Assembly (NCBI GenBank): GCA_035495215.1
Contig: DATJGH010000137.1
Coordinates: 1 to 62,928 of the forward strand
DNA from: Patescibacteria group bacterium
Lineage (GTDB): Bacteria; Chloroflexota; Limnocylindria; Limnocylindrales; CSP1-4
DNA length: 62,928 nt
Direction: 5' to 3'
Each line of letters begins with the position of its first letter. Position 1 is the first letter of the stretch. The notes below the pieces were generated by a model. That model saw only the letters and a program-made list of their open reading frames with translations, was not told where the DNA came from and made no database searches. This document shows positions 10,431-62,928 of the stretch, piece by piece. Position numbers and translations under genes: made by a program.

Positions 10431-10438
10431 CTGACGCT

Positions 10439-12754
10439 GTGCAGTGCGGACTGGTACAGACGGGGGATGGTGACTGGGCCCCGTCCGCCCGAGCATCGGG
10501 CTGCCCTCCCGAGGGTCGGACACACGGCCGTCTGCCTCCGCCGTCGCCACGAGAGCAAGTGGACACCTCCTCGACGCCCATCCGAGCCGCGAAACGACGC
10601 GCCGCAAAGACCGCCGCTCCGGCTCCCGAGGCCGCGAGCGAGGAAGGTGCGCCCGCCGCGCCGACGCCGCCGACGGAGCCGTTCGCCCCGGTCGAGCACT
10701 CCTTCAAGGACAGGCGCGCGGCCGCCACGGCGCGGACGCGCCGATCGGCGCACCTGACGCTGCGTCTCACCAGCGATCCGCAGTTCCTCCTCGCGGTGGC
10801 GATCGCCCTGCCCGTCCTCGCGGTGGAGGGCACGTACCAGCTCGCGCTCCCGTGGCTTGTCGTCGCCGTCCCGGTGGGGTACGTGGGCCTGCAGCTCGCG
10901 CTGACCGCGTGGCGCTCCGCGCCGGAGTGGCTGGCCCCGGTGCGCCTGGCCCTTGCGCTGGTGTTCATCGTCGTGGCGAACGCGTGGCTCGATCCAACCG
11001 GCACCTGGCCGCTGAGCGCCCTCGCCGTCCCGGTCGTGGCCCTCGCGGCATCACGCGGGGACGTCGCGTCCGTCGCGGTTGCGCTCGCGGGCATGGTGGC
11101 GATCCTCGCCCCGCTCGCCATCCCGAACGCGGATCCCGGCTCGCGCCAGCAGACCCTCGCCCTGGCGATGGCGGCGGGGGTCGTCGCCTTCGGCTGCCAG
11201 CGCATCGTCGCGAGCCTGAAGCGCTCGACGGAACGCGTCCGTTCCGCCAACTCCCGCGACCGCCGCCGGGCGCGCCAGCTCGCCGCCGTCGAGTCGGTGG
11301 GCAGCCTGCTCGCGCGCGAGGGCCCGACGACCGAGACCCTCGATCGGATGATCGGGCTGCTCGAGGAGACGTTCCACTACAGGTACCCATCCGTGTACGT
11401 GTGGGACGGCCGGGCGCTGCAGCTCGGCGCCCACCGCAACTACCGCTTCCCGATCCAGACGGTGACACCGGACAAGGGGGTGATCGGCAGGATCGTGCGG
11501 AGCCGCCAGCCGGCGTTCCTGCCCGACGCCCGCTCCGATCCCGATTTCCTGTCAGGTGATCCCGAGGTCGTCAGCGAGATCGGGATCCCGCTGGTTGCGG
11601 GGGGCGAGCTGATGGGCGTGCTGAACGTCGAGACGAGCGGCGAGCACCGCCTCGACGAGGACGACTTCTCCATGATCCAGATCGTGGGCGACCGCCTTGC
11701 CGTCGCGCTTGCCCTCGGTCGCGAGCGACTGAAGCTGACCGAGCGCGCGGCGCTGCTCGATCGCCTGACGACCTTCGCGACTGTGCTCAATGCCAGCCTC
11801 GAGAGCGCCCTGACGGATGATGAGATCGCGGCCGGCGCGGGCGTTGTCATCCCCGCCGACAGCGTGGTGATCATCCATCGCGACGAGGCGACCAGCGCCT
11901 ACCGGATCAGGGCCGTGGTCGGTGGCGACACCGCCGTCGTCGGCAACAAGATCGAGCTCGGTGAGGGCATCAGCGGCAGGGCGATCGTGGCTCGCAAGGT
12001 GATGGTCACCGATCGGCTGGAGCGCTCGCAGTTCCCGAAGGCCGTTGCCAAGGCGAAGCTGCCCGATGTGCTGGCTGCGATGTCGGCGCCCATGGTCATC
12101 GGCGACCAGATCGCCGGTGTGGTCACCTGGCTCCGCGGCGACCTCGCCAGGCCGTTCAGCGATCAGGAGCAGGAGGTCGCCGCGCTCGCCGCGAGCAGGG
12201 TCGGACTGTCGCTCGCCAACGCCCGGCTGCACCAGAAGACGCGCGACGCCGCGATCACCGACCCCCTGACCGGCATCCACAACCGCCGCCACTTCGACGC
12301 CGCGCTTGCGCACCAGGACGCACTTCGCCAGCGGATCCCGGCGGAGAAGCGTGGCCTTCGCTCCGCGATCCTGTTCGACCTCGACCACTTCGGCAGCGTC
12401 AACAAGCGCTTCGGGCACCAGGTCGGCGACCGCGTGCTCCGGCTCTTCGCCGACACCCTCAAGACCCGCATCCGGGGCAGCGACCTCATGGCCCGCTACG
12501 GCGGCGAGGAGTTCGTCGTCGTCCTCGAGGGCGCGAGCCGCGACGAGGCGATCGGCATCGCCGAGCAGGTGCGCGCGGCGTACTCGAAGCAGTCGGTCGA
12601 TACGGGCACCGGACAGCGGCTCAACTCGACGGTCTCGGCGGGCTGCTCCACGCTCGAGGCCTGGGAGGTCGAGGGCGTCCTCCTGCTCGAGCGCGCCGAC
12701 GTCGCGCTGGCGATGGCCAAGGCCGGCGGCCGCGACCAGGTGGTCGCCGCGTAA
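10439..12754 (+). CDS. membrane-anchored GAF-GAF-GGDEF diguanylate cyclase
   Basis: N-terminal TM helices and two GAF-like regions. GGDEF domain with DPLTGIHNRRHF, active-site GGEEF and I-site RGSD five residues upstream. The true start may be downstream of 10439. Confidence 0.9.
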   Translation: MQCGLVQTGDGDWAPSARASGCPPEGRTHGRLPPPSPREQVDTSSTPIRAAKRRAAKTAAPAPEAASEEGAPAAPTPPTEPFAPVEHSFKDRRAAATARTRRSAHLTLRLTSDPQFLLAVAIALPVLAVEGTYQLALPWLVVAVPVGYVGLQLALTAWRSAPEWLAPVRLALALVFIVVANAWLDPTGTWPLSALAVPVVALAASRGDVASVAVALAGMVAILAPLAIPNADPGSRQQTLALAMAAGVVAFGCQRIVASLKRSTERVRSANSRDRRRARQLAAVESVGSLLAREGPTTETLDRMIGLLEETFHYRYPSVYVWDGRALQLGAHRNYRFPIQTVTPDKGVIGRIVRSRQPAFLPDARSDPDFLSGDPEVVSEIGIPLVAGGELMGVLNVETSGEHRLDEDDFSMIQIVGDRLAVALALGRERLKLTERAALLDRLTTFATVLNASLESALTDDEIAAGAGVVIPADSVVIIHRDEATSAYRIRAVVGGDTAVVGNKIELGEGISGRAIVARKVMVTDRLERSQFPKAVAKAKLPDVLAAMSAPMVIGDQIAGVVTWLRGDLARPFSDQEQEVAALAASRVGLSLANARLHQKTRDAAITDPLTGIHNRRHFDAALAHQDALRQRIPAEKRGLRSAILFDLDHFGSVNKRFGHQVGDRVLRLFADTLKTRIRGSDLMARYGGEEFVVVLEGASRDEAIGIAEQVRAAYSKQSVDTGTGQRLNSTVSAGCSTLEAWEVEGVLLLERADVALAMAKAGGRDQVVAA

Positions 12755-35454: not shown

Positions 35455-35934
35455 ATGACCAGCGCCCCGATCGACTTCGCCGCTCCGGGGAGCGTGCTCG
35501 ACCATCTTTCCGGCTACGCCCGGGATCGACTCTCGCGCATCTCGCGGACCGAAACGTTCGAAGCAGGCGCCACGATCCTCGCGGAAGGCGGTCCGACGCT
35601 CTTCCTGGGCGTGGTCGAGTCGGGCCGGATCGCGCTCCGACTTCGGGTCCCCGAGCAGGGTGATCGCCTCACGATCCTGACCATCGAGCCGGGTGAGCTC
35701 TTCGGCTGGTCAGCGGTCGTGCCGCCGTACCGGGCCACGATCGACGCGATCGCGACCGAGCCGGCGACGGTCCTCGCGATCGATGCCCTGGAGCTGCGGA
35801 CGACGCTCGCGCGCGACTGCGACCTCGCGGCGGAGGTGCTGCCGCTCGTGCTCGAGTCGCTCGCAGCGCGCCTTGCCGGCAGCTGGCACCAGCTGCTCGA
35901 CCTGTTCGCGACCGGGACGCCGCAACCGTGGTGA
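35455..35934 (+). CDS. stand-alone cyclic-nucleotide-binding domain protein (no DNA-binding domain)
   Basis: 159 aa. GGAGG RBS 10 nt upstream. cNMP beta-barrel pattern FEAGATILAEGGP..LFLGVVESGRIAL..ELFGWSAVV. Its stop overlaps the next ATG (TGATG). Confidence 0.72.
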   Translation: MTSAPIDFAAPGSVLDHLSGYARDRLSRISRTETFEAGATILAEGGPTLFLGVVESGRIALRLRVPEQGDRLTILTIEPGELFGWSAVVPPYRATIDAIATEPATVLAIDALELRTTLARDCDLAAEVLPLVLESLAARLAGSWHQLLDLFATGTPQPW

Positions 35935-38003
35935 TGCCGGGCGACCCCCTGGCTCCGGGTCCGTCGCCGGGCGCCCCGCCGGCCGGCTGGGGCGAGGCGA
36001 CCCGATTCCTGCCGCGAGACCGCCTGGGCGACCTGATCGCGGCGCTGCGCGCGGCCGGACGGCGCGTCGTCGCCCCCGTGGTCGAGGACGGCGCATTGAA
36101 GATGGCCGAGATCGAGAGCCCGAACGAGCTGCCATTCGGCTGGACCGCGAAGTCCGAACCCGGCGTGGCCCGGCTGGTTCGGCAGCCCGCGGGGTCGCCG
36201 GGCGCCGATCGCGCCTTCGACAACGGTCCCGCATGGCGCGGCATCAAGCCCTGGACGTTCCCGGCCCGGGTGGAGTCGCTGGCCGTCGAGACCACCGCGG
36301 ACGGGCGCCTCGCCGTCCGAGTCGAGGCGCCGGCGCTGCAGCCAACCGCGGTGTTCGGCGCCCGTGCCTGCGACCTCGCCGCGCTCGCGGTCCATGACCG
36401 CGTCCTCGCGGACGGTCCCGCGGTGGATCCGGACTACGCAGCGCGCCGCGGCGACCTGTTCGTGGTCGCAGTCGAGTGTGCCCTGGCCACGTCGACCTGC
36501 TTCTGCACGTCGATGGGCACCGGGCCCGAGGTGACGACCGGCGCGGACATCGTGCTGAGCGAGGTCGACGGCGGATTCGTGGCTCGCTCCGAATCGGCCG
36601 CGGGCGCTCGGCTCCTCGACGGGCTCGCGCTCGACATCGCCATGCCCGCGCGCGTCGCGCAGGCCGCCGACCAGGTGGCGGCGACGCGGACCGCCATGGG
36701 CAACCCGGTGCAGGCGGCGGGCCTGCACGACCGGCTCCTGGCCAACCTCGACCATCCGCGCTGGGACGCGATCGCCGAGCGCTGCCTCGCCTGCGCGAAC
36801 TGCACCCTGGTCTGCCCGACCTGTTTCTGCACCGGGCTGGAGATCGGCTCGGACCTCGAAGGCCGCGAGTCGACCGCGACCCGGACCTGGGACAGCTGCT
36901 TCACCGCCGGCTTCGCCCAGGTCGCGGGCGGCGGCTCGTTCCGGCCCCGGCAACGGGATCGCTACCGGCAGTGGCTCACCCACAAGTTCGGGACGTGGTG
37001 GGACCAGTTCGGGACCTCGGGCTGCGTGGGCTGCGGCCGGTGCATCGCCTGGTGCCCGGTCGGGATCGACGTGCGCGAGGAGCTCGCGATCATCGCCGCC
37101 CCCGCCCTGGCGGACGCCGCGCCCGCCGCGCCTGCCGCGACGCGCCGGCACCCGGTGCTCCAGACAACGGTCGAGCCGGGCTCGGTCCGGACGGACTACG
37201 TGACTGTGAAGGTCACCGAGGTCCGCCCCGAGACCGCCGATACGACGACGCTCGTCCTGGCCACGGACGATCCGTCCCTTCTCGCCGCACGCCCGGGGCA
37301 GTTCGTGATGGTCGCGATGCCGGCCTTTGCCATCCCCCCGATCTCGATCTCGCGGATCCGGCCGGACGGGCTCGAGCTGACGATTCGCGCGGCCGGTCCG
37401 GCGACGTCGCTGCTGGCCAGGCTCCAGCCGGGCGCGCAGCTCGGCCTCCGCGGCCCCCTCGGCCGGCCGTGGCCGATCGAGGATGCAACGGGACGCGACG
37501 TCGTGATCGTCGGCGGCGGGATCGGCCTCGCCCCGCTGCGCGGCGTGATCGACGCGGTGCTCGCCGACCGGGACCGCTACGGGGCCGTCCGCGTCTACGC
37601 CGGCGCGCGCACGCCGCGCGACCGCCTGTTCGTGGCCCAGCTCGATGCCCTGTCCGCCCGAGACGACGTGGTCGTCCGGTCCACCGTGGACCGGGCCGGC
37701 GCGGACTGGCTCGGCCGGGTCGGGATCGTGACCCAGCTGTTCCCGACGCCGCAACCGGGGATCAGCGGCGCGAACGTCACTGCCTTCGTGTGCGGGCCCG
37801 AGCGGATGATGACGGCGACCGCCGATGCGCTCGTGGACCTCGGTGTCCCGGCGGACCACCTGTGGTTGACGCTCGAACGGCGGATGGAGTGCGGCGTGGG
37901 GCTGTGCGGCCACTGCCAGCTCGGAACGCGGTTCGTCTGTCGCGACGGGCCGGTGTTCTCGGTCGCGGAGCTCGGGCCGGACCTCCGGCGGGAGGGGTTG
38001 TGA
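35934..38003 (+). CDS. group 3b [NiFe]-hydrogenase beta (Fe-S, AsrA/HydB-like) and gamma (FAD/NAD(P)-binding, 2Fe-2S, HydG/PyrK-like) subunits fused in one polypeptide
   Basis: 689 aa. Cys clusters CFCTSMGTG, CLACANCTLVCPTCFC, GCVGCGRCIAWCP. Ala/Pro linker. Then a ferredoxin-reductase-type fold (RPGQFVMV, ISISR, VIVGGGIGLAPL) and C-terminal CGVGLCGHCQ. Confidence 0.87.
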   Translation: MPGDPLAPGPSPGAPPAGWGEATRFLPRDRLGDLIAALRAAGRRVVAPVVEDGALKMAEIESPNELPFGWTAKSEPGVARLVRQPAGSPGADRAFDNGPAWRGIKPWTFPARVESLAVETTADGRLAVRVEAPALQPTAVFGARACDLAALAVHDRVLADGPAVDPDYAARRGDLFVVAVECALATSTCFCTSMGTGPEVTTGADIVLSEVDGGFVARSESAAGARLLDGLALDIAMPARVAQAADQVAATRTAMGNPVQAAGLHDRLLANLDHPRWDAIAERCLACANCTLVCPTCFCTGLEIGSDLEGRESTATRTWDSCFTAGFAQVAGGGSFRPRQRDRYRQWLTHKFGTWWDQFGTSGCVGCGRCIAWCPVGIDVREELAIIAAPALADAAPAAPAATRRHPVLQTTVEPGSVRTDYVTVKVTEVRPETADTTTLVLATDDPSLLAARPGQFVMVAMPAFAIPPISISRIRPDGLELTIRAAGPATSLLARLQPGAQLGLRGPLGRPWPIEDATGRDVVIVGGGIGLAPLRGVIDAVLADRDRYGAVRVYAGARTPRDRLFVAQLDALSARDDVVVRSTVDRAGADWLGRVGIVTQLFPTPQPGISGANVTAFVCGPERMMTATADALVDLGVPADHLWLTLERRMECGVGLCGHCQLGTRFVCRDGPVFSVAELGPDLRREGL

Positions 38004-38941
38004 TGGCGCTTGCCATGCCGGAGCCCGGTCGAGTCCGGCGCGTCGCCGAGGCGCAGCGACCGCGGGTCGGTGTCGTCAAGTTCGCGTCGTGCGACGGCTG
38101 CCAGCTGACCATCCTCGATCTCGAGGACGAGCTGCTCGCCCTCACCGACCGCTTCGATTTCGTCGAGTTCGCCGAGGCAACGTCGAAGCGCTCGTCCGGC
38201 CCATTCGACGTCTTGTTCGTCGAGGGCTCCATCTCCACCCCGGAGCAGGCGGTCGAGATCGTTCGCCTGCGGGCGGTCACGAGGACGCTGGTCACGATCG
38301 GGGCGTGCGCCACCGTCGGCGGGATCCAGGCCCTGCGAACCGCCTCGGAACACGAGGCCTTCCGGTCGGCGGTGTACCCGTCGCCCGCGTTCGTCGACTC
38401 GCTCGTGGTCGCCTCGCCGATCGCCAGCCACGTCACCGTCGACCATGAGCTCCGCGGCTGCCCGATCGACGGACACCAGCTCGTCGAGCTGCTGACCTCC
38501 GTCGCCACGGGCCGGCGCCCCCAGCTGCCGGACCAGGCGGTGTGCCTCGAGTGCAAGCGGCGCGGGTACGAGTGCGTCGTCGTGACCCGCGGCGAGCCGT
38601 GCCTGGGGCCGGTCACGCAAACCGGTTGCGGCGCGATCTGCCCGGGCATGGGGCGCGGCTGCTACGGCTGCTTCGGGCCCCGGGAGGGTGCCAACGTCGA
38701 GTCGCTCGCCGGCTGGTACATGAACGGGCCGTCCGGGCCGCGGGCCGCGGTCGACGTGGGCCGCCTGTTCGCCGGCTTCACCGGCGCGAGCCCGGCCTTC
38801 CGCGCCATCACGGATCGGCTCGGCGGACGCCCGCCCCTGCCACTGCGGCCGGCGCTGGCCCACCCGCCCGAGCTCGTCCAGGAGGCGCTCCCCACGTGGG
38901 GGCCGCAACCGGCGGAGGAGGCTGTCGATGCACACGAGTGA
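38003..38941 (+). CDS. hyhS: [NiFe]-hydrogenase small (delta) subunit, group 3b type
   Basis: Last 312 codons of track ORF 36476-38941. FASCDGCQL, GACATVGGI, CLECKRRGYEC, GPVTQTGCGAICPGMGRGCYGCFGP. ATG overlaps the upstream TGA. Confidence 0.9.
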   Translation: MALAMPEPGRVRRVAEAQRPRVGVVKFASCDGCQLTILDLEDELLALTDRFDFVEFAEATSKRSSGPFDVLFVEGSISTPEQAVEIVRLRAVTRTLVTIGACATVGGIQALRTASEHEAFRSAVYPSPAFVDSLVVASPIASHVTVDHELRGCPIDGHQLVELLTSVATGRRPQLPDQAVCLECKRRGYECVVVTRGEPCLGPVTQTGCGAICPGMGRGCYGCFGPREGANVESLAGWYMNGPSGPRAAVDVGRLFAGFTGASPAFRAITDRLGGRPPLPLRPALAHPPELVQEALPTWGPQPAEEAVDAHE

Positions 38942-40232
38942 CCTCCGCTTCCAGGTCCAGAACCTGACCCGTGTCGAGGGCGAGGGGTCGCTGCACCTGA
39001 CGGTCCGGGACGGGCAGGTCAGCGAGGCGCGACTGCAGATCTTCGAGGCGCCGCGGTACTTCGAGGCGCTCGTGGTTGGCCGGACCCCGAACGAAGTCCT
39101 CGACATCGTGTCGCGCATCTGCGGCATCTGCCCCGTCGCCTACCAGATGAGCGCGGTCCACGCCTTCGAGGACCTGTTCGGCGTCGAGGTCGAGCCGGCG
39201 ACGCGGGCCCTCCGCCGGCTCCTGTACTGCGCCGAATGGATCGAGAGCCACGCCCTGCATATCTACCTCCTGCACGCCCCCGACTTCCTCGGCTACCCGA
39301 GCGCGGTGGAGCTCGCCCGGGACCATCGCCAGCTGGTCACGGATGGGCTGCGGCTCAAGCAGATCGGCAACCAGCTGCTGGCGCTCCTCGGTGGCCGCGC
39401 GATCCACCCGGTCAGCGTCCGCGTCGGCGGCTGGTCGCGAGCTCCGCGGCGAGCCCAGCTCACGGCGTTCGTCCCCGCCCTGCACGAGGCGCTCCAGCTC
39501 GCCCGTGCCACGGTCGACGTGGCGCTCACGCTCACGCCGCCCGAGTTCGAGCGCGAGCCGCGGCTCGTCGCGCTCCACCATCCGGGCGAATACCCGATGA
39601 ACGAGGGCCGGATCGTCTCTGATCGCGGGCTCAACCTCCCAGCGCAGTCCTGGCCCGAGGTCTTCCACGAGGTCCAGGTGCCCTGGTCGAATGCGCTCCA
39701 GGCCCGGGACGACAGCGGCCTGCCGTATCTCCTCGGGCCCGCCGCGCGGATCGTGCTCGATCACGACCAGCTTCATCCGCTGGCCAGGGAGGCGCTCGAG
39801 AGCAGCGGGGCGCTGGAGTCGATCCGGCGCAACCCATATCGAAGCATCGTTGCCAGGGGCATCGAGCTGGTGCAGGCCGCCGCGGACGCGCTCGACATCG
39901 TCGAGGCCTACCGGCCTCCGGAGGCACCGGCCGTCACCTGGGAGCCGCGGCCGGGCGTCGCGGCCTGGGCCACCGAGGCGCCGCGGGGACTCCTGTTCCA
40001 TCGCTACGAGGTCGGCGAGGACGGGCTCGTCGCGGCCGCGACGATCGTCCCCCCGACGTCGCAGAACCAGGCAGCGATCGAGGCCGACATCGCGCTGTTC
40101 GCGCCCCGCGTCCTGGGCCTGCCGATGGACGAAGCGACGCGCCGGCTCGAGCAGCTGATCCGGGCCTACGACCCGTGCATCTCCTGCGCGACGCACTTCC
40201 TGGACCTGTCGATCGATGGGGTGCCGGCATGA
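38928..40232 (+). CDS. hyhL: [NiFe]-hydrogenase large (alpha) subunit, group 3b type
   Basis: 434 aa. N-terminal RICGICPVAY (RxCGxC) and C-terminal DPCISCATH Ni-Fe ligand motifs. GGAGGAG RBS. Confidence 0.95.
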   Translation: MHTSDLRFQVQNLTRVEGEGSLHLTVRDGQVSEARLQIFEAPRYFEALVVGRTPNEVLDIVSRICGICPVAYQMSAVHAFEDLFGVEVEPATRALRRLLYCAEWIESHALHIYLLHAPDFLGYPSAVELARDHRQLVTDGLRLKQIGNQLLALLGGRAIHPVSVRVGGWSRAPRRAQLTAFVPALHEALQLARATVDVALTLTPPEFEREPRLVALHHPGEYPMNEGRIVSDRGLNLPAQSWPEVFHEVQVPWSNALQARDDSGLPYLLGPAARIVLDHDQLHPLAREALESSGALESIRRNPYRSIVARGIELVQAAADALDIVEAYRPPEAPAVTWEPRPGVAAWATEAPRGLLFHRYEVGEDGLVAAATIVPPTSQNQAAIEADIALFAPRVLGLPMDEATRRLEQLIRAYDPCISCATHFLDLSIDGVPA

Positions 40233-40729
40233 ACGCGCCGGCGCCGGTGATCCGGCTGCTCGTCTGCGGCAATGCCGATCGGGGCGACGACGGCGCTCCG
40301 CTGTGCGCGGTCGCCCATGTGCTGCCGCGCCTCGACGCCTCGCTGCGCGGGCTGCTCGAGGTACGCCGTTGCGAGCAGCTGGACGCGACCGACCTCATCG
40401 ACGTCGCCCCCGGCGAGGCGTGCCTGATCCTCGACACGGTCGTCGGGGTGGAGCCCGGGGCGATCGTCGAGCTCTCGCTCGAGGACCTCGCGCTGCAGCC
40501 GACGGTCACGCCGCGGTCATCCCACGCCCTGCCGATCAGCCAGGTCCTCGGCATCGCCCGGTCCGTGCGCGGCTCCCTCCCGCGCGGCACGTTCGTCGGC
40601 ATCGGCGGCAAGTGGTTCGGGTTCGGCGAAGTCCGGTCACGTGCGCTGCGCGAGGGCATGGACGATTTCGAGCGGGCGATCACGGCGGCGATCGCGGCAC
40701 TTGCGACGCCACAGGAGGTTGCCGGCTGA
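40229..40729 (+). CDS. hydrogenase maturation endopeptidase (HycI/HoxW family)
   Basis: 166 aa from MNAPAPVIRLLVCGNADRGDDGAP (GNxxxGDDG motif), SSHALP. ATGA overlap with the hyhL stop. Confidence 0.85.
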   Translation: MNAPAPVIRLLVCGNADRGDDGAPLCAVAHVLPRLDASLRGLLEVRRCEQLDATDLIDVAPGEACLILDTVVGVEPGAIVELSLEDLALQPTVTPRSSHALPISQVLGIARSVRGSLPRGTFVGIGGKWFGFGEVRSRALREGMDDFERAITAAIAALATPQEVAG

Positions 40730-55911: not shown

Positions 55912-58425
55912 ATGGAAGTGATGGACGAGACCTACGCGCAGTCGCCGGACATGGTCGCAACGGCGCTCGCGGTCGATCCGGCCCAGGGCCTCGACGATTC
56001 CGAGGTTGCTGATCGGTCGGCAGCGTCCGGCCCGAACGACCTCGAGCGGGCGGGTCGCGCCCCCGTGCTGCGCATGGTCCTCAAGGCCGCCACCGAGCCG
56101 TTCGTCCTGCTGCTCCTTGCGGCAGGGCTCGGCGCAGTCCTCCTCGGCGAGGTGCGTGACGGTCTCCTGATTCTCGCCGGCCTGATCCCGATCGTCGGCG
56201 CGGACGTCGTGACCGAGTACCGCGGGGAGCGGGCGTTGGAGGCGTTGCGCGACGCGACGGCTCCCCGGGCCACGGTTCGCCGGGGCGGCACCGTCCAGGA
56301 CATCGCGGCAGCCGAGCTCGTTCCCGGCGACATCGTCCTCCTGCGGGTCGGCGACGTCGTGCCGGCCGACCTGCGCGTGATTCGCGCGGACCGCCTGGTG
56401 CTGGATCGAAGCGTGCTCACCGGCGAATCGCTGCCGGAGCCTGCTGCGGTCGAACCCGCGGCCCCGGGCACGCCCCTCGCCGACCGGCGCTCCGTGGCCT
56501 ACTCGGGGACGAGCGTCGTCGGCGGACGCGGCGAGGGCATCGTCGTCGCGACCGGGGCACGCACCGAGGTCGGCCGCATCGCCCAGGGGCTGACCGCACG
56601 ACAGCGGCGGCGCTCGCCGCTCCAGCGCGAGCTGGACCGGCTGGTCCGGATCCTGCTCGTCGTCGCCGTCGGGCTCATTGCGATCACCAGTGGGCTCGGC
56701 TTCATTCGCGGCAACCCGCTCGGTGCGAACCTCCTCGCCGGCATCTCGGCCGCCATCGCCGCCATCCCCGAGGAGCCTCCGGTCCTGCTCGCCGTGATCC
56801 TCGGGCTCGGCGCGTACCGCCTCCTGCGCCGCGGCGTCCTCGTCCGGCGCCTCAACGCCGAAGAGGTGCTCGGCGCCGTCGATCTCATCGTCACCGACAA
56901 GACCGGCACGTTGACGCTGAACCAGCTCGAGGTCGCGAGCGTGTCCGACCTCGGCGGGCCGGTGCCGGCCGAACGGCGCACGCCGCTGCTCGAGGCCGCG
57001 CTCCGGGCGGAGGATGACGCGTGGGCCGCGCACGGCCGCGGCTCGTTCACGCTTGCCTTGGCCCGCGCCGTCGACGCCGCGGGTGGTGCTTCGCAGCCCG
57101 ATGCCGCCGACCTCATCGAAGCCGAGCCGGTCGACGACGGCCGGCCGTATTCGCGAACGGTGGCCCGACGAGGCGCCACGCTCGAGACGCTGGCCCTGGG
57201 TGCGCCCGAAACGGTGGCGGACCTCGCCCTCGGATCGACCGGGCCGGAGCGCCAGCAATGGCATGCGCTGATCGAGGGATCGGTCGATCGTGGCGAGCGC
57301 GTCGTCGGGCTGGCGCGCCGGCTGGGCGAGGAGCGATGGGTCATGGAGGCGCTCATCGGCTTCGCGGACGCGCTCCGCCCGGGGATCAGGGAGGCGGCCG
57401 CGGAGGCCCGCGACGCCGGAATCCACGTCGTCATGGTCACCGGCGACCATCCCGGCACGGCCCGGGCCATCGCCGAGCATGCCGGCCTCGGCCAGGGGGC
57501 CGTCGCGCTCGGCGCGGCGGTCGAGGGATGGTCGGATGCCGAGCTCGGTGAGCGGCTCCCGGGCCTCCTCGCCATCGCCCGGTCGACGCCCGACCTGAAG
57601 CGTCGGGTGGTCGAGTGTGCCCGGGCGGCGGGCCACCTGGTCGCCGTCACGGGCGACGGCGTCAACGACGCGCCGGCGCTCCATGGCGCGGACGTGGCGG
57701 TCGCGATGGGCAGCGGAACGGCCGTTGCCAAGGAGGCCTCCGACCTGGTCCTCGGCGACGATTCGTTCGCGACGCTCATCTTCGGCATCGCCGAGGGGCG
57801 CCGGATCGTCGACAACGTGCAGAAGGGCCTGGTGTTCCTGGTCTCGACGCACGTCGCGCTGCTCGGCTTCGTGCTGATCGCGACGCTCGCCGGGTTCAGC
57901 CAGCCGCTGCTCCCGATCCAGATCCTGTGGCTGGAGCTGTTCATCGACTTGTCGACGTCCGTCGCCTTCGAACGGGAGCCGGCCGAGCCGGATCTCATGA
58001 CCCGAGCGCCGCGCCAGGTCGATCGACCCCTGCTGACGCGCAGCCTCCTCGCACGGATCAGCCTTGCCGGCGGATTCAGCGCGATCGCGGCGCTGGGCCT
58101 GTTGTCCGGCGTGCTCGTCGGCTCTGCCCATCCCCAGTGGCTGGCCTACACCGCGCTCGTCTGCGCACAGGCTGTTCGGGCGTACGCGAACCGGAGCCTG
58201 ACCAAGCCGCTCTTCCGCCTCGCGCCGAACGGCGTGCTCCTCGTCGCGTGCCTCGCGGTCGTCGCGGTGCAGGCGGCCATCCCGCTCGTTCCCGGGCTCG
58301 CCGACGCGTTCCGCGCGGAGCCGCTGTCCCTGGCCGAATGGGCGCTCGTGGCCGCGATCGCCGTCGCGCCGGCCCTGTTCGCTGAGCTCGTCCGCGCCAC
58401 CCGGCGGGTTGCCTGGGTGGCCTGA
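55912..58425 (+). CDS. P-type cation-transporting ATPase (P2-like)
   Basis: LTGES, DKTGTLT phosphorylation site, MVTGDHPGTA, VTGDGVNDAPAL. The TM4 motif reads AIPEEPP rather than the PEGLP I would expect for Ca-type pumps. Confidence 0.92.
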   Translation: MEVMDETYAQSPDMVATALAVDPAQGLDDSEVADRSAASGPNDLERAGRAPVLRMVLKAATEPFVLLLLAAGLGAVLLGEVRDGLLILAGLIPIVGADVVTEYRGERALEALRDATAPRATVRRGGTVQDIAAAELVPGDIVLLRVGDVVPADLRVIRADRLVLDRSVLTGESLPEPAAVEPAAPGTPLADRRSVAYSGTSVVGGRGEGIVVATGARTEVGRIAQGLTARQRRRSPLQRELDRLVRILLVVAVGLIAITSGLGFIRGNPLGANLLAGISAAIAAIPEEPPVLLAVILGLGAYRLLRRGVLVRRLNAEEVLGAVDLIVTDKTGTLTLNQLEVASVSDLGGPVPAERRTPLLEAALRAEDDAWAAHGRGSFTLALARAVDAAGGASQPDAADLIEAEPVDDGRPYSRTVARRGATLETLALGAPETVADLALGSTGPERQQWHALIEGSVDRGERVVGLARRLGEERWVMEALIGFADALRPGIREAAAEARDAGIHVVMVTGDHPGTARAIAEHAGLGQGAVALGAAVEGWSDAELGERLPGLLAIARSTPDLKRRVVECARAAGHLVAVTGDGVNDAPALHGADVAVAMGSGTAVAKEASDLVLGDDSFATLIFGIAEGRRIVDNVQKGLVFLVSTHVALLGFVLIATLAGFSQPLLPIQILWLELFIDLSTSVAFEREPAEPDLMTRAPRQVDRPLLTRSLLARISLAGGFSAIAALGLLSGVLVGSAHPQWLAYTALVCAQAVRAYANRSLTKPLFRLAPNGVLLVACLAVVAVQAAIPLVPGLADAFRAEPLSLAEWALVAAIAVAPALFAELVRATRRVAWVA

Positions 58426-58571
58426 CCGAAGCCCCCGGGCGGTCCGGCCCGGGTCCTCTGGCGCATCGGTCGTGACCGTCGGCCCTCCCGCGAGGGCCGA
58501 GCCGGCCGCGAGAGTGAGGGCATGCGACGCCTGATCGTCAGCCGACTTCGCGAGCCCGCGGGCGCGTAGCC

Positions 58572-58838
58572 ATGTGCATCGCAGCGCCCGCACGGATCAT
58601 CGAGATCGAGGCTGGATCGGCCCTCATCGAGCTCGATGGCCGGCGTCGCCGCGCCTCGCTGCTGCGGGCTCCTGCGGTCGCCGTCGGCGACTGGGCGCTC
58701 GTCGCCGCGGGCAGCGTGCTCCGCCGGCTCGAGCCCGAAGAGGCCGCGGAGCTTGCCGAGCTGCTCCGCCCGGCGAGGCTCGCAACCACGGACCCAGCTG
58801 ATCAGGACGCAGCCCACCCCGGAGGAGAATCAAGATGA
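58572..58838 (+). CDS. hypC: HypC/HupF-family hydrogenase assembly chaperone
   Basis: 88 aa. N-terminal MCIAAPARIIEIE (essential Cys2). GDWALVAAG core, where the usual His of GxWVLVHxG is Ala. ATGA overlap with the next gene. Confidence 0.82.
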   Translation: MCIAAPARIIEIEAGSALIELDGRRRRASLLRAPAVAVGDWALVAAGSVLRRLEPEEAAELAELLRPARLATTDPADQDAAHPGGESR

Positions 58839-59803
58839 GGACCGAACCGAGCGCACCCGCGACCAAGGCGCCCAGGATCCCCGGCACGCTGCGGTGGGGC
58901 CTCCTGCTCGCCCTGGCGACCGCCGCCATCAGCGGCATCTCGATCTGGGTCAACGCCTTCGCGGTGAAGCAGCTGCCCGATCCGGCCGTGTACACGACCG
59001 TCAAGAATGGTGTCGCCGCCGTCCTGCTCATCGCCCTCGTCGCCGCCACCGTCCGCCCGGCACAGGTCCGGGCGATCACGCCGCGTTCATGGGGCTGGCT
59101 GCTCCTGATCGGGGTCGTCGGGGGAAGCCTGCCGTTCATCCTGTTCTTCACCGGGCTGGCACAGGCCAGCGCGCCGTCCGCGGCGTTCATCCACAAGACC
59201 CTGTTCGTGTGGGTGGCGCTGCTCGCCGTGCCGTTCCTCGGCGAGCGACTCGGCTTCGTCCAGCTCGGCGCGCTCGGCGTGCTCCTCGCGGGCCAGGCCC
59301 TCGTGCTCACGCCGGCCGGGGTCACCTGGGGCGCCGGCGAGACGATGATCGCCGCCGCCACGCTGCTGTGGGCGGTCGAGAGCATCGTTGCCAAGCGCGT
59401 CCTGCGCAGCGTGCCGTCGCAGGTGGTCGGCGCGAGCCGCCTGGGCGCGGGTCTCCTTGTCCTCGTCGGCTATCTCGCGCTCACCGGCAAGCTCGGCGTG
59501 GTCGCCGGGCTGACACCGGTGCAGTGGGGCTGGGCCATGCTGACGGGCCTGTTCCTGCTCGGCTACGTCGGGACATGGTTCGCCGCGCTCCAGCGCGCTC
59601 CAGCGAGCCTCGTGACCGCGATCCTGGTGCTGGGCGCTCCTGTCACCGCATTGGCCCAGGTCCTCCAGACCGGCGCGGCTCCGGCCGTCCCGGCGCTCAC
59701 CGGCCAGCTCCTCATCCTCGTCGCGGGCGCCGTCCTGGCGCTACCGGCCGTGCTGCACCTCCGCGGCGCGTCGAACCAGGCACCGGAGCCTGCTCGGACA
59801 TGA
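58835..59803 (+). CDS. EamA/DMT-superfamily transporter (10 TM)
   Basis: 322 aa. GGAGGAG RBS. Two EamA-like halves of 5 TM each. Confidence 0.83.
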   Translation: MRTEPSAPATKAPRIPGTLRWGLLLALATAAISGISIWVNAFAVKQLPDPAVYTTVKNGVAAVLLIALVAATVRPAQVRAITPRSWGWLLLIGVVGGSLPFILFFTGLAQASAPSAAFIHKTLFVWVALLAVPFLGERLGFVQLGALGVLLAGQALVLTPAGVTWGAGETMIAAATLLWAVESIVAKRVLRSVPSQVVGASRLGAGLLVLVGYLALTGKLGVVAGLTPVQWGWAMLTGLFLLGYVGTWFAALQRAPASLVTAILVLGAPVTALAQVLQTGAAPAVPALTGQLLILVAGAVLALPAVLHLRGASNQAPEPART

Positions 59804-60591
59804 CCTCGGCGGCGCCGGTCCCGGCAACCTCGGACTGGACGCGGCCGATCCCGCCCGCGCCCGGGCCGATCCGCTTCGCGCGCTACGCCTTCGGGCCGAA
59901 CCGACTGGGCTACTGCGGGCCGGACGAGGCCGGCGAGCTGTTCGCGCAGGCGACCCTCGGGCAGGACCTGCGCAAGCTGCGCGAGCTCGCGGGCCAGTTC
60001 GAGGGGGCCTACCCCTACCTGTGCCTGATCGCGGACGGCAACGGCGTGCGCGATCCCCTCGACGCCGGCGTGGTCGAGGCGTACTGGCTCGGCAACTCCC
60101 TGCTCGGGGGCGTGCGACCGCGCGACTTCGGCGGCAGCCTGGACGCCCGCTTCCGCGCGCGGCTGCGCGGCGACGGCTGGCGCTGGCTCGGATCGAAGCC
60201 CGAGCTGGGCGCCGTGCCCAACCACGCCTTCCACGTGCTGGACGTGTTCCCGAAGGTCGGCATGCTCCGGACCGGCGAGGTGGAGCACGCGCTCGAGGTC
60301 ATGGATTCGTGCCGCATCCGCTGGGGTCGCGTCCTGGAGCGCGACGGCGATGCGCTCGTGGTGTCGGCGGTGCCGCTGACGATGATCGACGGCAAGCTGC
60401 GCATGGGCCCGCCACGGGTCGAGCGGATCCGCGGCTGGCTGGATGGCGCGGGCTTCGTCGACGAGGTCACGCCGGGCGATGTCGTCTCGATCCACTGGGA
60501 CTGGGCGTGCGAGCGGCTGGACGCACGCCGCCTCGCCGCGCTGCGTGGCGTGACCGCCACGGAGCTGGAGCTCGCGAACCGCACGATCTGA
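59800..60591 (+). CDS. uncharacterised protein with an internal/C-terminal HypC-like segment
   Basis: Last 263 codons of track ORF 58636-60591. ATGA overlap upstream. C-terminal ~95 aa reads SCRIRWGRVLERDGDALVV .. GDVVSIHWDWA..LD, paralleling the HypC pattern MC(I/L)xxPGxVxEIDGxxAxV .. GxWVLVHxGFA..I. Confidence 0.65.
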   Translation: MTSAAPVPATSDWTRPIPPAPGPIRFARYAFGPNRLGYCGPDEAGELFAQATLGQDLRKLRELAGQFEGAYPYLCLIADGNGVRDPLDAGVVEAYWLGNSLLGGVRPRDFGGSLDARFRARLRGDGWRWLGSKPELGAVPNHAFHVLDVFPKVGMLRTGEVEHALEVMDSCRIRWGRVLERDGDALVVSAVPLTMIDGKLRMGPPRVERIRGWLDGAGFVDEVTPGDVVSIHWDWACERLDARRLAALRGVTATELELANRTI

Positions 60592-60662
60592 GCGCGGGGG
60601 TCGGGACCTTCGGCAGGGAAACGGACCCAATGCGCCGCCCGGGAACGAGACGCGCGGCACTC

Positions 60663-61061
60663 ATGCACAAGCCTGCATATGAGCATGCTCGTGACATGGA
60701 CGAGATCACCCGACTCCAGGCCGACGTTCTGAAGGTGCTCGCGCACCCGGCCAGGATCGAGATCCTGCATCGGCTGGCCGGCGGACCGATCGAGGTCGGC
60801 CGCCTCGCCGAGCTGATCGGCACGACCCAGCCCAACGCCTCCCAGCATCTCGCCGTCCTGCGCGGCGCCGGGCTCGTGGAGCCGGACCGCCACGGGCGCG
60901 AGATCCGGTATCGCCTGACCGATCCCGACGTGATCGTCGCCTGCTCGCTGATGCGCGGCGTCCTGCAGCGCCGCCTCGAGCGCCTCGCGCTGCTCGCCTC
61001 GACCCCTTCGCCCGGCATGACGAGTACGTCGATGCCGAGCCTCCTCCGATCACCAGCCTGA
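60663..61061 (+). CDS. ArsR/SmtB-family transcriptional regulator
   Basis: LKVLAHPARIEILHRLAGGPIEVGRLAELIGTTQPNASQHLAVLRGAGLV wHTH signature. ATG 60696 is an alternative start. Confidence 0.85.
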   Translation: MHKPAYEHARDMDEITRLQADVLKVLAHPARIEILHRLAGGPIEVGRLAELIGTTQPNASQHLAVLRGAGLVEPDRHGREIRYRLTDPDVIVACSLMRGVLQRRLERLALLASTPSPGMTSTSMPSLLRSPA

Positions 61062-61486
61062 TGGAGCCAGCCATGGACCAACCGCTCAACCTCGTGCTCT
61101 TCTCCGGGACCGACGACAAGCTCCAGGCAGCCGCGGTCCTGACCGCCGGCGCCGCGGCGCTCGGGCGGCCGGTGAACGTGTTCCTGCAGTACTGGGCCCT
61201 CGACGCATTCCGCAAGGGCAAGGTCGATCGCGACCACGGCCTGGCCCCGGAGGCCGGCGCCGAGGGTCGCGAGCACGTGGACCACCTGCGCAAGGCCGGA
61301 CAGGTGGGCTGGGCGGAGGTGCTCCGCCAGGCCAAGGACCTGGGCCCGGTCGACATCCAGGCCTGCTCACTGTCGATGGACCTGCTGGGCATCGACGAGT
61401 CCGACCTCGATCCACTCGTCGACGGCGTCGAAGGCGTGACCGCCTTCTACCTCAACGCCGGCGACGGGCACATGGTCTTCATCTGA
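61061..61486 (+). CDS. DsrE/DsrF-like sulfur-relay family protein
   Basis: 141 aa. LNLVLFSGTDDKLQAAAVL and active-site-like ACSLSMDLLGI. ATG overlaps the ArsR stop. Confidence 0.72.
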   Translation: MEPAMDQPLNLVLFSGTDDKLQAAAVLTAGAAALGRPVNVFLQYWALDAFRKGKVDRDHGLAPEAGAEGREHVDHLRKAGQVGWAEVLRQAKDLGPVDIQACSLSMDLLGIDESDLDPLVDGVEGVTAFYLNAGDGHMVFI

Positions 61487-61515
61487 GCGCGGACGAGCGC
61501 GAAAGGACCGACGCC

Positions 61516-61752
61516 ATGACCCTCCTCGACATCGCAACCACCGTCGACGCGCGCGGGCTGTCGTGCCCGATGCCGATCGTCCGCACGGCGCTCGCCGTCA
61601 AGTCGCTGCAACCCGGGGCCCTGATCGAGGTCCTCGCGACGGACCCGGGCTCGCAGCGCGATTTCGTGGCCTGGTGCCGCTCGACCGGACACGTCCTCGT
61701 CGGGCAGACCGCCGATGGCCCCGTCTACCGCTTCCTCATCCGCCGGAAGTGA
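61516..61752 (+). CDS. tusA: TusA-like sulfurtransferase
   Basis: 78 aa. DARGLSCPMPIV (CPxP motif). Confidence 0.88.
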   Translation: MTLLDIATTVDARGLSCPMPIVRTALAVKSLQPGALIEVLATDPGSQRDFVAWCRSTGHVLVGQTADGPVYRFLIRRK

Positions 61753-61760
61753 GGCTCGAG

Positions 61761-62393
61761 ATGACCCCCACCGCCCCCATCGAAGCCCCGAAGACGACGC
61801 CCGCCCCGCCGTTCGACCCGATCGCCGCGGCGATCGCCGACGTGGAAGGCCTCGCCGGCGTCGATCCGATCCCTGCCCCGTTCGCCGAGGCGTTCGGCGC
61901 TCCGGAGGAGCGGGCCAAGCCCCGCGACCTCGTGATCATCTGCTACAGCGGGGACCTGGAGAAGACCTGGGCAGCGCTGATTCTCGCGACCACGGCGGCC
62001 GCCAGCGGCGTGACGACCAGGATCTTCCTGACCTTCTGGGGCCTCCAGACGTTCGTCAAGGACGAGCGCCGCATCACGGGCCAGAACTGGATGCAGCGGA
62101 TGCTCAGCTTCATGCAGCGACCGGGCATCAGCCATCGGAAGCTGTCGAAGATGAACTTCCTGGGCATGGGCCCGTGGATGATGGGCACGCTCGCCCGCCG
62201 CTACCACGTCGCCAGCCCCAAGGAGCTGCTCGACATGGCGCTCGTCCTCGGCGTCGAGCTCATGCCCTGCCAGATGACGATGGACATGTTCGGCCTGACC
62301 CGCGACGACATGATCGACGGGCTCGGTGAGCCGGTCGGCGCCGCGACCGTCGTCGAGCTCCTCGCCAACGGCGCGGCACCCCTGTTCATCTGA
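61761..62393 (+). CDS. DsrE/DsrF-like sulfur-relay family protein with a ~50-aa N-terminal extension
   Basis: 210 aa. LVIICYSGDLEKTWAALIL and PCQMTMDMFGL parallel the motifs of 61061-61486. Confidence 0.72.
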   Translation: MTPTAPIEAPKTTPAPPFDPIAAAIADVEGLAGVDPIPAPFAEAFGAPEERAKPRDLVIICYSGDLEKTWAALILATTAAASGVTTRIFLTFWGLQTFVKDERRITGQNWMQRMLSFMQRPGISHRKLSKMNFLGMGPWMMGTLARRYHVASPKELLDMALVLGVELMPCQMTMDMFGLTRDDMIDGLGEPVGAATVVELLANGAAPLFI

Positions 62394-62419
62394 TCCAAAC
62401 CTCCCGAAGGGAGCACGCC

Positions 62420-62671
62420 ATGACCGCCATCCTCCAGGTCGAGACCGTCACCCGGACGGTCGATGCCCGGGGCAGCTTCTGCCCCGGCCCGCTGATGGAG
62501 CTGATCCGAGCGATCCGCGAGTCGCAGGTCGGCGATGTGATCGCCGTCCAGTCGACGGACAAGGGCTCGAAGCTCGACATCCCCAAGTGGGTCGAGAAGG
62601 CCGGCCACCGGCTGGTCTCCCTCGACGCACGCGAGGGCTACGACGAGATCGTGGTCCAGAAGCTGCGGTAG
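62420..62671 (+). CDS. tusA: TusA-like sulfurtransferase (second copy)
   Basis: 83 aa. DARGSFCPGPLM motif. Confidence 0.85.
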   Translation: MTAILQVETVTRTVDARGSFCPGPLMELIRAIRESQVGDVIAVQSTDKGSKLDIPKWVEKAGHRLVSLDAREGYDEIVVQKLR

Positions 62672-62679
62672 GGATACCC

Positions 62680-62928
62680 ATGGACCGCATCGTCATCCTC
62701 GGCGGCGGCGTCGGCGGCACGCTCACCGCGAACCTCCTCGCCCGCCGGCTGCGCGCGCGGATCCGCCGCGGCGAGGTCGACCTGACGCTGGTCGACGCGC
62801 AGGGTGCCCACGTCTACCAGCCCGGGTTCATGTACATCGCCATGGGCGGCGAGCGCGAGGAGCGCCTCGCCCGATCGGAACGGGCGCTGCTCGATGATCC
62901 GGTGAACCTCATCGTCGGCACCGCCGAG
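62680..62928 (+). CDS. FAD-dependent pyridine nucleotide-disulfide oxidoreductase, sulfide:quinone oxidoreductase-like (5' part, truncated by the window end)
   Basis: MDRIVILGGGVGGTLTANLL Rossmann GxGxxG, then HVYQPGFMYIAMG, typical of SQR/NDH-2-type enzymes. Confidence 0.72.
   Translation, partial: MDRIVILGGGVGGTLTANLLARRLRARIRRGEVDLTLVDAQGAHVYQPGFMYIAMGGEREERLARSERALLDDPVNLIVGTAE

Follow-up and report, generated by a model that had tools for sequence, protein, structure and literature searches.

A hypC-permease-DUF6390 gene trio linked to [NiFe]-hydrogenases in bacteria nearly always devoid of hypD, hypE and hypF

In the published model of [NiFe]-hydrogenase maturation, iron is held by C2 and H51 of HypC together with C41 of HypD (PMC12134894), and current reviews have all six Hyp proteins, which are regarded as necessary, making the NiFe(CN)2CO cofactor of every [NiFe]-hydrogenase (PMC12134894, PMC12130793). 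Here we describe a locus on contig DATJGH010000137.1 (assembly GCA_035495215.1) in which a hypC gene is followed by genes for an EamA/DMT permease and for a protein of the Pfam family DUF6390. The window, meaning the whole 62,928-nucleotide (nt) stretch analysed, has a G+C content of 71% and is one contig of a 2.68-Mb metagenome-assembled genome (81.7% complete) whose relatives are named as Chloroflexota / Limnocylindria. The unit occurs in soil bacteria in which hypD, hypE and hypF, genes regarded as indispensable, are nearly always missing, so that their metal centre may be built or obtained in an undescribed way. We propose, at roughly even chances, that the three genes are a single accessory operon, coupled in translation, that serves the maturation of [NiFe]-hydrogenases, and in which DUF6390 would be a HypC-derived metal- or cofactor-binding accessory acting with its own HypC and a transporter. 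The first-pass annotation of this sequence had likewise pictured an undescribed accessory maturation or cofactor-handling module built on a HypC-like fusion protein, a suggestion supported by the HypC-like fold and the hydrogenase linkage reported below and by a literature search that found no paper mentioning DUF6390.

Gene structure and the HypC-like domain of DUF6390

The trio and the parts of its third protein (lengths in amino acids, aa) are laid out as follows.

58572..58838, + strand: gene 1, hypC family, 88 aa, start MCIAAP (PF01455, TIGR00074)
58835..58838, + strand: ATGA stop/start overlap of hypC and the EamA gene (read off the sequence)
58835..59803, + strand: gene 2, EamA/DMT permease, 322 aa, about 10 hydrophobic segments (PF00892, hydropathy profile)
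59800..59803, + strand: ATGA stop/start overlap of the EamA and DUF6390 genes (read off the sequence)
59800..60591, + strand: gene 3, DUF6390 protein, 263 aa (PF19927)
59800..60309, + strand: N-terminal all-helical domain, DUF6390 residues 1-170, with C39 (YCGP) and H142 and H145 (HxFHV) (AlphaFold2 model)
60310..60591, + strand: HypC-like OB-fold domain and C-terminal helix, residues 171-263 (hhalign, PDB search, Foldseek)
60310-60312, + strand: codon TGC of C171, which aligns with HypC Cys2
60493-60495, + strand: codon CAC of H232, which aligns with the HypC His

All three open reading frames exist as first described, with both ATGA overlaps present in the sequence, and the middle gene, called a ten-membrane-segment EamA protein at the outset, has the two PF00892 repeats and the hydrophobic segments of one. 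A 4-nt overlap is the commonest EamA/DUF6390 junction, found in 15 of 55 related loci. A scan of 58300-60800 for promoters and terminators found none, and a TCGGGACC half-site just 3' of the DUF6390 stop was rejected as a signal, being not enriched (5 copies, 6.75 expected).

Gene 3 matches PF19927, a family of at least 1,842 clusters at 50% identity, over profile positions 4-240 of 244 (272.9 bits, cut-off 25, E 3.1e-81). AlphaFold2 modelled the full-length protein with a pLDDT of 91.4 and a pTM of 0.90, and the isolated C-terminal domain with a pLDDT of 93.7; in the model, helices occupy residues 22-171 and are followed by a beta barrel (174-240) and a final helix. Six residues, C39, H142, H145, C171, H232 and C237, are invariant in 57 DUF6390 sequences from three phyla.

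Profile comparison and modelling agree that the C-terminal half of DUF6390 resembles HypC beyond chance. When a profile of residues 160-263 (57 members) was compared by hhalign with a profile of 59 HypC proteins, the match reached 95.8% probability (E 6.8e-9) and placed C171 on HypC Cys2 and H232 on the His column, with an insert of about 18 residues between them. In a search of 177,635 PDB sequences with the C-terminal profile, the top three entries were the HypC structures 2z1c (0.0044), 3vyr (0.0057) and 3d3r (0.43). Foldseek, given the domain model and 350,542 PDB chains, likewise put HypC 2z1c_B first (E 2.1e-3, probability 1.00, target-normalised TM 0.63), with E. coli HypC ranked 42nd amid generic OB folds. 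The HypC match emerged by Foldseek only with the isolated domain; the whole model gave nothing in the PDB at E <0.1, generic OB folds only, so the helical domain is without a solved relative. In a direct search with PF01455 gene 3 shows a weak match at residues 219-246 (13.8 bits, cut-off 28.5, E 0.067), and such a match occurs in 16 of the 57 members (best E 0.0046).

A HypC-like segment embedded in gene 3 had first been claimed from two strings, SCRIRWGRVLERDGDALVV and GDVVSIHWDWACERLD. Both are real, corresponding to DUF6390 residues 170-188 and 226-241, and when the possibility of a fold unrelated to HypC was checked by profile and structure prediction the C-terminal part proved HypC-like, with 2z1c the best PDB match. 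Two details needed correction. The strings are 37 residues apart, the reported 55 being the distance from C171 to G226, and the cysteine, rightly described as internal, is residue 171 rather than about 167; it lies at the end of the helix preceding strand 1, so that there is no free N-terminal Cys.

Gene 1 belongs to the HypC family by two profiles (PF01455, 65.3 bits, cut-off 28.5, E 5.4e-18; TIGR00074, 53.2 bits, cut-off 48), and has the HypC-type Met-Cys amino terminus (Cys2). When its own genome was searched, no other gene of the assembly passed the HypC-family cut-off. Its core reads GDWALVAAG, with Ala45 in the column of the conserved HypC His (E. coli H51, GDxVLVHxG), a position backed by the profile alignment and by an alignment with Thermococcus HypC. 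The loss of this His, remarked on from the start, is therefore real; it is a trait of Limnocylindria-type partner HypCs, however, and the partners of Actinomycetota and Ktedonobacteria retain the residue. No HypD partner for gene 1 was found, PF01924 having 0 matches in the assembly (81.7% complete) and in two same-genus genomes (93-94% complete).

The permease contains PF00892 in two stretches (87.6 bits, cut-off 28.2, E 1.2e-24) and receives from NCBIfam a far sub-threshold match only. Across 63 orthologues from related loci the conserved residues are S33, G34, N40, K57, N58, E137, R138, E182 and T271. A direct EamA-DUF6390 fusion protein also exists.

Hydrogenase linkage and distribution against the Hyp proteins

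A scan of one genome per GTDB species gave at least 589 DUF6390 loci. The best 80, which belong to Chloroflexota, Actinomycetota and Dormibacterota, with Pedococcus cremeus and P. bigeumensis among them, were searched with the window proteins as seeds; 62 of the 80 contain HypC, 67 EamA and 51 a hydrogenase large subunit. The genes typically run Fe-S/flavoprotein-small-large-protease-HypC-EamA-DUF6390, the same order being seen on annotated contigs, and a large subunit lies within 10 kb of DUF6390 in 43 of the 56 related loci with enough flank. DUF6390 is tied to more than one hydrogenase class. The association with hydrogenases that had been anticipated for group 3b holds, without being specific to that group, since group-1-like clusters also carry DUF6390.

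The distribution of DUF6390 is complementary to that of HypD, HypE and HypF. In an even sample of 301 Chloroflexota genomes, DUF6390 was found in 32, HypD in 135 and both in none. Strong [NiFe] large-subunit matches were present in 28 of the 32 DUF6390-positive genomes versus 130 of the 269 others, and, with the 43 linked loci, this speaks against a family distributed independently of hydrogenases. The 158 genomes with a strong large-subunit hit comprise 126 with HypD only, 28 with DUF6390 only and four with neither. HypE and HypF were detected at cut-off in 0 of the 32 DUF6390-positive genomes versus 20 of 20 HypD-positive controls. Since the HypD-only and DUF6390-only states both occur within single families (f1, f8, f15 and f22 in our labelling) and within one genus (g29), switches between them must have been repeated. 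HypD is also absent from 31 of 32 further DUF6390 genomes, including two Pedococcus isolates and two closed chromosomes. The Pedococcus strains, P. cremeus CGMCC 1.6963 and P. bigeumensis JCM 16023, possess the whole hydrogenase-HypC-EamA-DUF6390 cluster but neither HypD nor HypA.

The lack of hypA, hypB, hypD, hypE and hypF first reported for the window extends to the whole assembly, in which hypA, hypD, hypE and hypF gave no match above family cut-offs and hypB none at E<=1e-10. At family level HypA, HypB, HypD, HypE and HypF were likewise undetected in the source genus (genomes G000, G221 and G277), so that, of the known maturation set, only HypC and an endopeptidase are left. Maturation of the hydrogenase encoded 18 kb upstream thus has no recognisable genes beyond the trio and that endopeptidase. 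In many other genomes HypA, or HypA and HypB, stand beside DUF6390 (G041, G001, G158, G026, G042, G066, G013, G018, G005 and G251). Since the anticorrelation is with HypD, HypE and HypF and not with HypA and HypB, it points to the iron (Fe(CN)2CO) branch of maturation and not to the nickel branch. A literature search on hydrogenases without hypD found nothing relevant.

The presumed client in the window and its endopeptidase are encoded as follows.

35928..40232, + strand: group-3-type [NiFe]-hydrogenase (Pfam, own-genome PF00374 search, translation)
35928-38003, + strand: fused Fe-S/flavoprotein subunit (Pfam)
about 38003-38930, + strand: hydrogenase small subunit (Pfam)
38928-40232, + strand: hydrogenase large subunit, RICGIC...DPCISCATH, 11-residue tail
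40229..40729, + strand: 166-aa hydrogenase maturation endopeptidase of divergent sequence (PF01750 E 0.0045, short of the family cut-off)

The endopeptidase frame comes directly after the large subunit, and in 27 of the 80 related loci a homologue of it separates the large-subunit gene from hypC. In the group-3 large subunits beside DUF6390 the first motif reads RICGICPVAYQ, with Tyr for the usual His in 36 of 46 (residues 65-73 of the window subunit), and the C-terminal tail has 9-15 residues in 42 of 46 (window residues 423-434). In 12 large subunits taken from HypD-positive genomes the residue is His and the tail is 25-28 residues long. An initial assumption, that HypCDEF serves the same hydrogenase in sister genera, was dropped, the large subunits retrieved from HypD-positive genomes being of another group-3 subtype.

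In the window the trio is flanked upstream by a cation P-type ATPase and downstream by an ArsR-DsrE-TusA-DsrE-TusA-Pyr_redox_2 cluster (60630-62928, + strand), a layout common to its closest relatives. The tree assigns the window to a well-supported 8-member subclade whose trio has separated from the hydrogenase. In many Limnocylindria loci the ArsR-DsrE-TusA cluster is found again 2-10 kb downstream of DUF6390, in one case inverted, and it is absent in Actinomycetota loci; a sulfhydrogenase-type enzyme and sulfur trafficking may be linked at the level of the class.

Proposed role and alternative explanations

Under the proposed role in maturation, DUF6390 is a soluble two-domain protein whose OB domain keeps the two iron-holding residues of HypC (C171 and H232), with C39, H142 and H145 added by the helical domain and C237 completing the six invariant Cys/His. 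Judged from its residues, one chain may thus offer iron ligands like those of the published HypC-HypD model, in effect an in-cis copy of the HypC-HypD cysteine pair. Its metal-containing ligand would most likely be the iron unit meant for the Ni-Fe centre, nickel also being possible; the co-translated permease would supply this ligand or a precursor, and DUF6390 would hand the ligand on to the neighbouring HypC, which would use its free N-terminal Cys to insert it into the large subunit. Stand-alone DUF6390 would act as carrier or scaffold and fused DUF6390 as a sensor. Constant features of the family are the hydrogenase neighbourhood, the adjacent HypC and the six Cys/His; a coupled transporter is frequent, as is, in one subclade, a DNA-binding domain.

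The fused forms, found among the 1,842 cluster representatives, join DUF6390 to PadR, MarR, GntR, XRE or ArsR DNA-binding domains. PadR-DUF6390 has 15 cluster members in at least 34 index blocks and DUF6390-MarR 17 in at least 41; one PadR fusion, P0222, is a singleton, the other PadR and MarR fusions being recurrent. The clusters that contain PadR and MarR fusions are of group-1-like hydrogenases. The PadR form precedes a Nik/Opp-type importer and the structural genes; the MarR form comes right after hypC, which the GntR form also follows. At two loci (L139/L140, 1852-10902) the PadR-DUF6390 fusion heads an operon with a 394-aa protein without family assignment and the Nik/Opp-type ABC importer; after a small opposite-strand gene come group-1-like small and large subunits and a NifU-Rieske protein.

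Downstream of several DUF6390 genes lies an ABC importer of the PhnS/Fbp/PotD class. The label of iron importer was dropped for these, since their NCBIfam matches are all far below cut-off; the nearest such types are 2-aminoethylphosphonate, polyamine and ferric importers. One ABC-coupled DUF6390 gene (L125, 1062-7532) has no hydrogenase within 10 kb and lies beside two ornithine carbamoyltransferase-like genes and one carbamate-kinase-like gene. These neighbours belong to carbamoyl-phosphate metabolism, and carbamoyl phosphate is the canonical cyanide precursor; their proximity may be coincidental. At three Pseudonocardiales loci (L098, L106 and L116, DUF6390 at about 9950-10762) DUF6390 adjoins a divergently transcribed gene for a class-V aminotransferase (cysteine-desulfurase-like) and genes for GCS2, for an epimerase and for a protein of the metallo-beta-lactamase fold, with no HypC, EamA or hydrogenase within 10 kb.

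Several observations weigh against the proposed role in maturation. The trio is detached in the window, lying 18 kb downstream of the hydrogenase, and none of its components could plausibly provide the cyanide and CO ligands. Large subunits associated with DUF6390 look canonical, keeping the four Cys, the PRG Arg, PT..N and DPCxxCxxH. Among the 63 permease orthologues no His or Cys is conserved, so a free soft-metal substrate is not favoured, and the permease sequence gives no substrate assignment. The Fisher p of 4e-27 for the HypD/DUF6390 split among large-subunit genomes ignores kinship. In two strains of Carbonactinospora thermoautotrophica, a cultured H2/CO oxidiser, the operon (L119/L120, 3359-10819) runs hypF-hypC-(HupF-like, 245 aa)-SIS-hypE-hypC-hypD-DUF6390, with a 4-nt overlap of hypD and DUF6390, which shows that DUF6390 can work beside a full Hyp set. 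The single HypD-positive exception among the 32 further genomes, one of the three Pseudonocardiales just described, has DUF6390 in a setting without hydrogenase genes. With these two cases DUF6390 is not always an alternative to HypD, HypE and HypF; both lie in a separate subclade of the tree.

The recurrent DNA-binding fusions point to a ligand-sensing domain and not to an assembly scaffold, and they favour the likeliest alternative, that DUF6390 is mainly a sensor, a domain that binds a ligand or metal and signals how much metal is at hand or how far cofactor assembly has gone. Standing alone, it would gate or regulate the co-translated permease; fused, it would control transcription of hydrogenase and transporter genes; and it would carry no cofactor itself. 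Every fusion inspected lies in a hydrogenase cluster, the transporters to which DUF6390 is coupled are of three kinds (EamA, the PhnS/Fbp/PotD-class ABC importer and, by direct fusion, EamA again), and the coexistence with a full Hyp set in Carbonactinospora fits such a role as well. A sensor leaves unexplained, however, the exclusion between DUF6390 and HypD, HypE and HypF (0 of 32 in the Chloroflexota sample, 31 of 32 elsewhere) in a set where only four of 158 hydrogenase genomes have neither, and its close partnership with a HypC of its own speaks for hand-over no less than for sensing. Moreover, all non-EamA variants placed in the tree, fused and ABC-coupled, fall in one Actinomycetota subclade, away from the EamA-coupled clade of the window, so that their role may be derived. 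We regard a mainly sensory DUF6390 as unlikely, though worth serious consideration.

The trio might instead serve nickel supply, in which case the permease would take up nickel or a chelate of it and DUF6390 would be a Cys/His nickel chaperone replacing HypA and HypB. Cys/His-rich sites are typical of nickel proteins, hydrogenase clusters commonly include nickel transporters, the PadR fusion precedes an importer of the Nik/Opp type, and HypA and HypB are undetected in sister family f3 and in Pedococcus as well as in the source genus. What makes this account improbable is that DUF6390 adjoins HypA, or HypA and HypB, in the many genomes listed above, that the exclusion concerns HypD, HypE and HypF instead, that the permease is without a conserved His or Cys, and that the DUF6390 domain derives from the iron chaperone HypC. 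The absence of HypB was dropped as evidence, since TIGR00073 was undetected in 10 of the 20 HypD-positive controls and its absence is therefore not diagnostic. The distance of 18 kb from the hydrogenase and the flanks kept in the closest relatives could also suggest that the trio is unrelated to the hydrogenase here and serves the upstream P-type ATPase or the downstream ArsR-DsrE-TusA sulfur-transfer cluster, but this is very improbable, given that orthologues outside the 8-member subclade directly follow the hydrogenase, that the sulfur cluster elsewhere varies in distance and orientation or, in Actinomycetota, is absent, and that gene 1 is the sole HypC of a genome with a [NiFe]-hydrogenase.

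Returning to a role in maturation, we consider it possible rather than probable that a sizeable bacterial group matures genuine [NiFe]-hydrogenases without HypD, HypE and HypF, and that HypC, the permease and DUF6390 are central to a second route by which the cofactor's iron part is obtained. About one in six of the Chloroflexota hydrogenase genomes sampled has DUF6390 only, and the group also includes Actinomycetota (among them cultured Pedococcus) and Dormibacterota. Such a route would be new chemistry on a HypC/DUF6390 scaffold, or uptake of a precursor through the transporter with DUF6390 as cytoplasmic receiver, in which event the DNA-binding fusions would sense the same compound. A route independent of HypD, HypE and HypF would be categorically new; either a route to a cyanide- and CO-bearing iron unit beyond the Hyp set exists, or these enzymes carry a different centre. 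The findings give a Pfam family of uncharacterised function its first functional context, and they bear on the open question of the cofactor iron source and on minimal gene sets for heterologous hydrogenase production.

Comparison with known systems

The nearest known proteins are those of the HypC/HybG/HupF family (PF01455, TIGR00074; structures 2z1c, 3vyr, 2ot2 and 3d3r). Gene 1 is a member, unlike typical HypC in being without the conserved His. The last 90 residues of DUF6390 share with HypC an OB barrel plus helix, a Cys opening strand 1 and a His in GDxVxxH, but DUF6390 differs in its internal Cys, its insert of about 18 residues, its fusion behind a 170-residue helical domain and a PF01455 score below the Pfam cut-off. 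A further comparison is with HypD, the [4Fe-4S] scaffold partner of HypC: DUF6390 adjoins hypC, and its conserved Cys/His could pair with HypC Cys2 in the manner of HypD C41 (PMC12134894). There is no sequence or fold similarity between DUF6390 and HypD, and DUF6390 is without sign of redox or ATPase function. In Pfam and NCBIfam searches gene 3 had no PF01924 match, and it has three conserved Cys only, with no four-Cys [4Fe-4S] motif.

Extra scaffolds and HypC paralogues are a feature of O2-tolerant hydrogenases, in which HoxL, HoxV, HupF and HupK hold the iron unit or pass it on along its way from HypCD to the large subunit. Like DUF6390 they are additional cluster-encoded proteins; unlike it, they act on top of HypCDEF and are not known to have a helical Cys/His fusion or a coupled permease. 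Transporters of the DMT/EamA type move metabolites and metallophores, the pseudopaline exporter CntI being an example. The window permease resembles them in its two EamA repeats and about ten membrane segments and differs in forming a distinct orthologous group tied to HypC and DUF6390. In one-component metal regulators an effector-binding domain controls transcription by NikR-type logic. DUF6390 resembles such effector domains where it is fused to PadR, MarR, GntR, XRE or ArsR domains beside transporter and hydrogenase genes, whereas the DUF6390 protein of the window stands alone.

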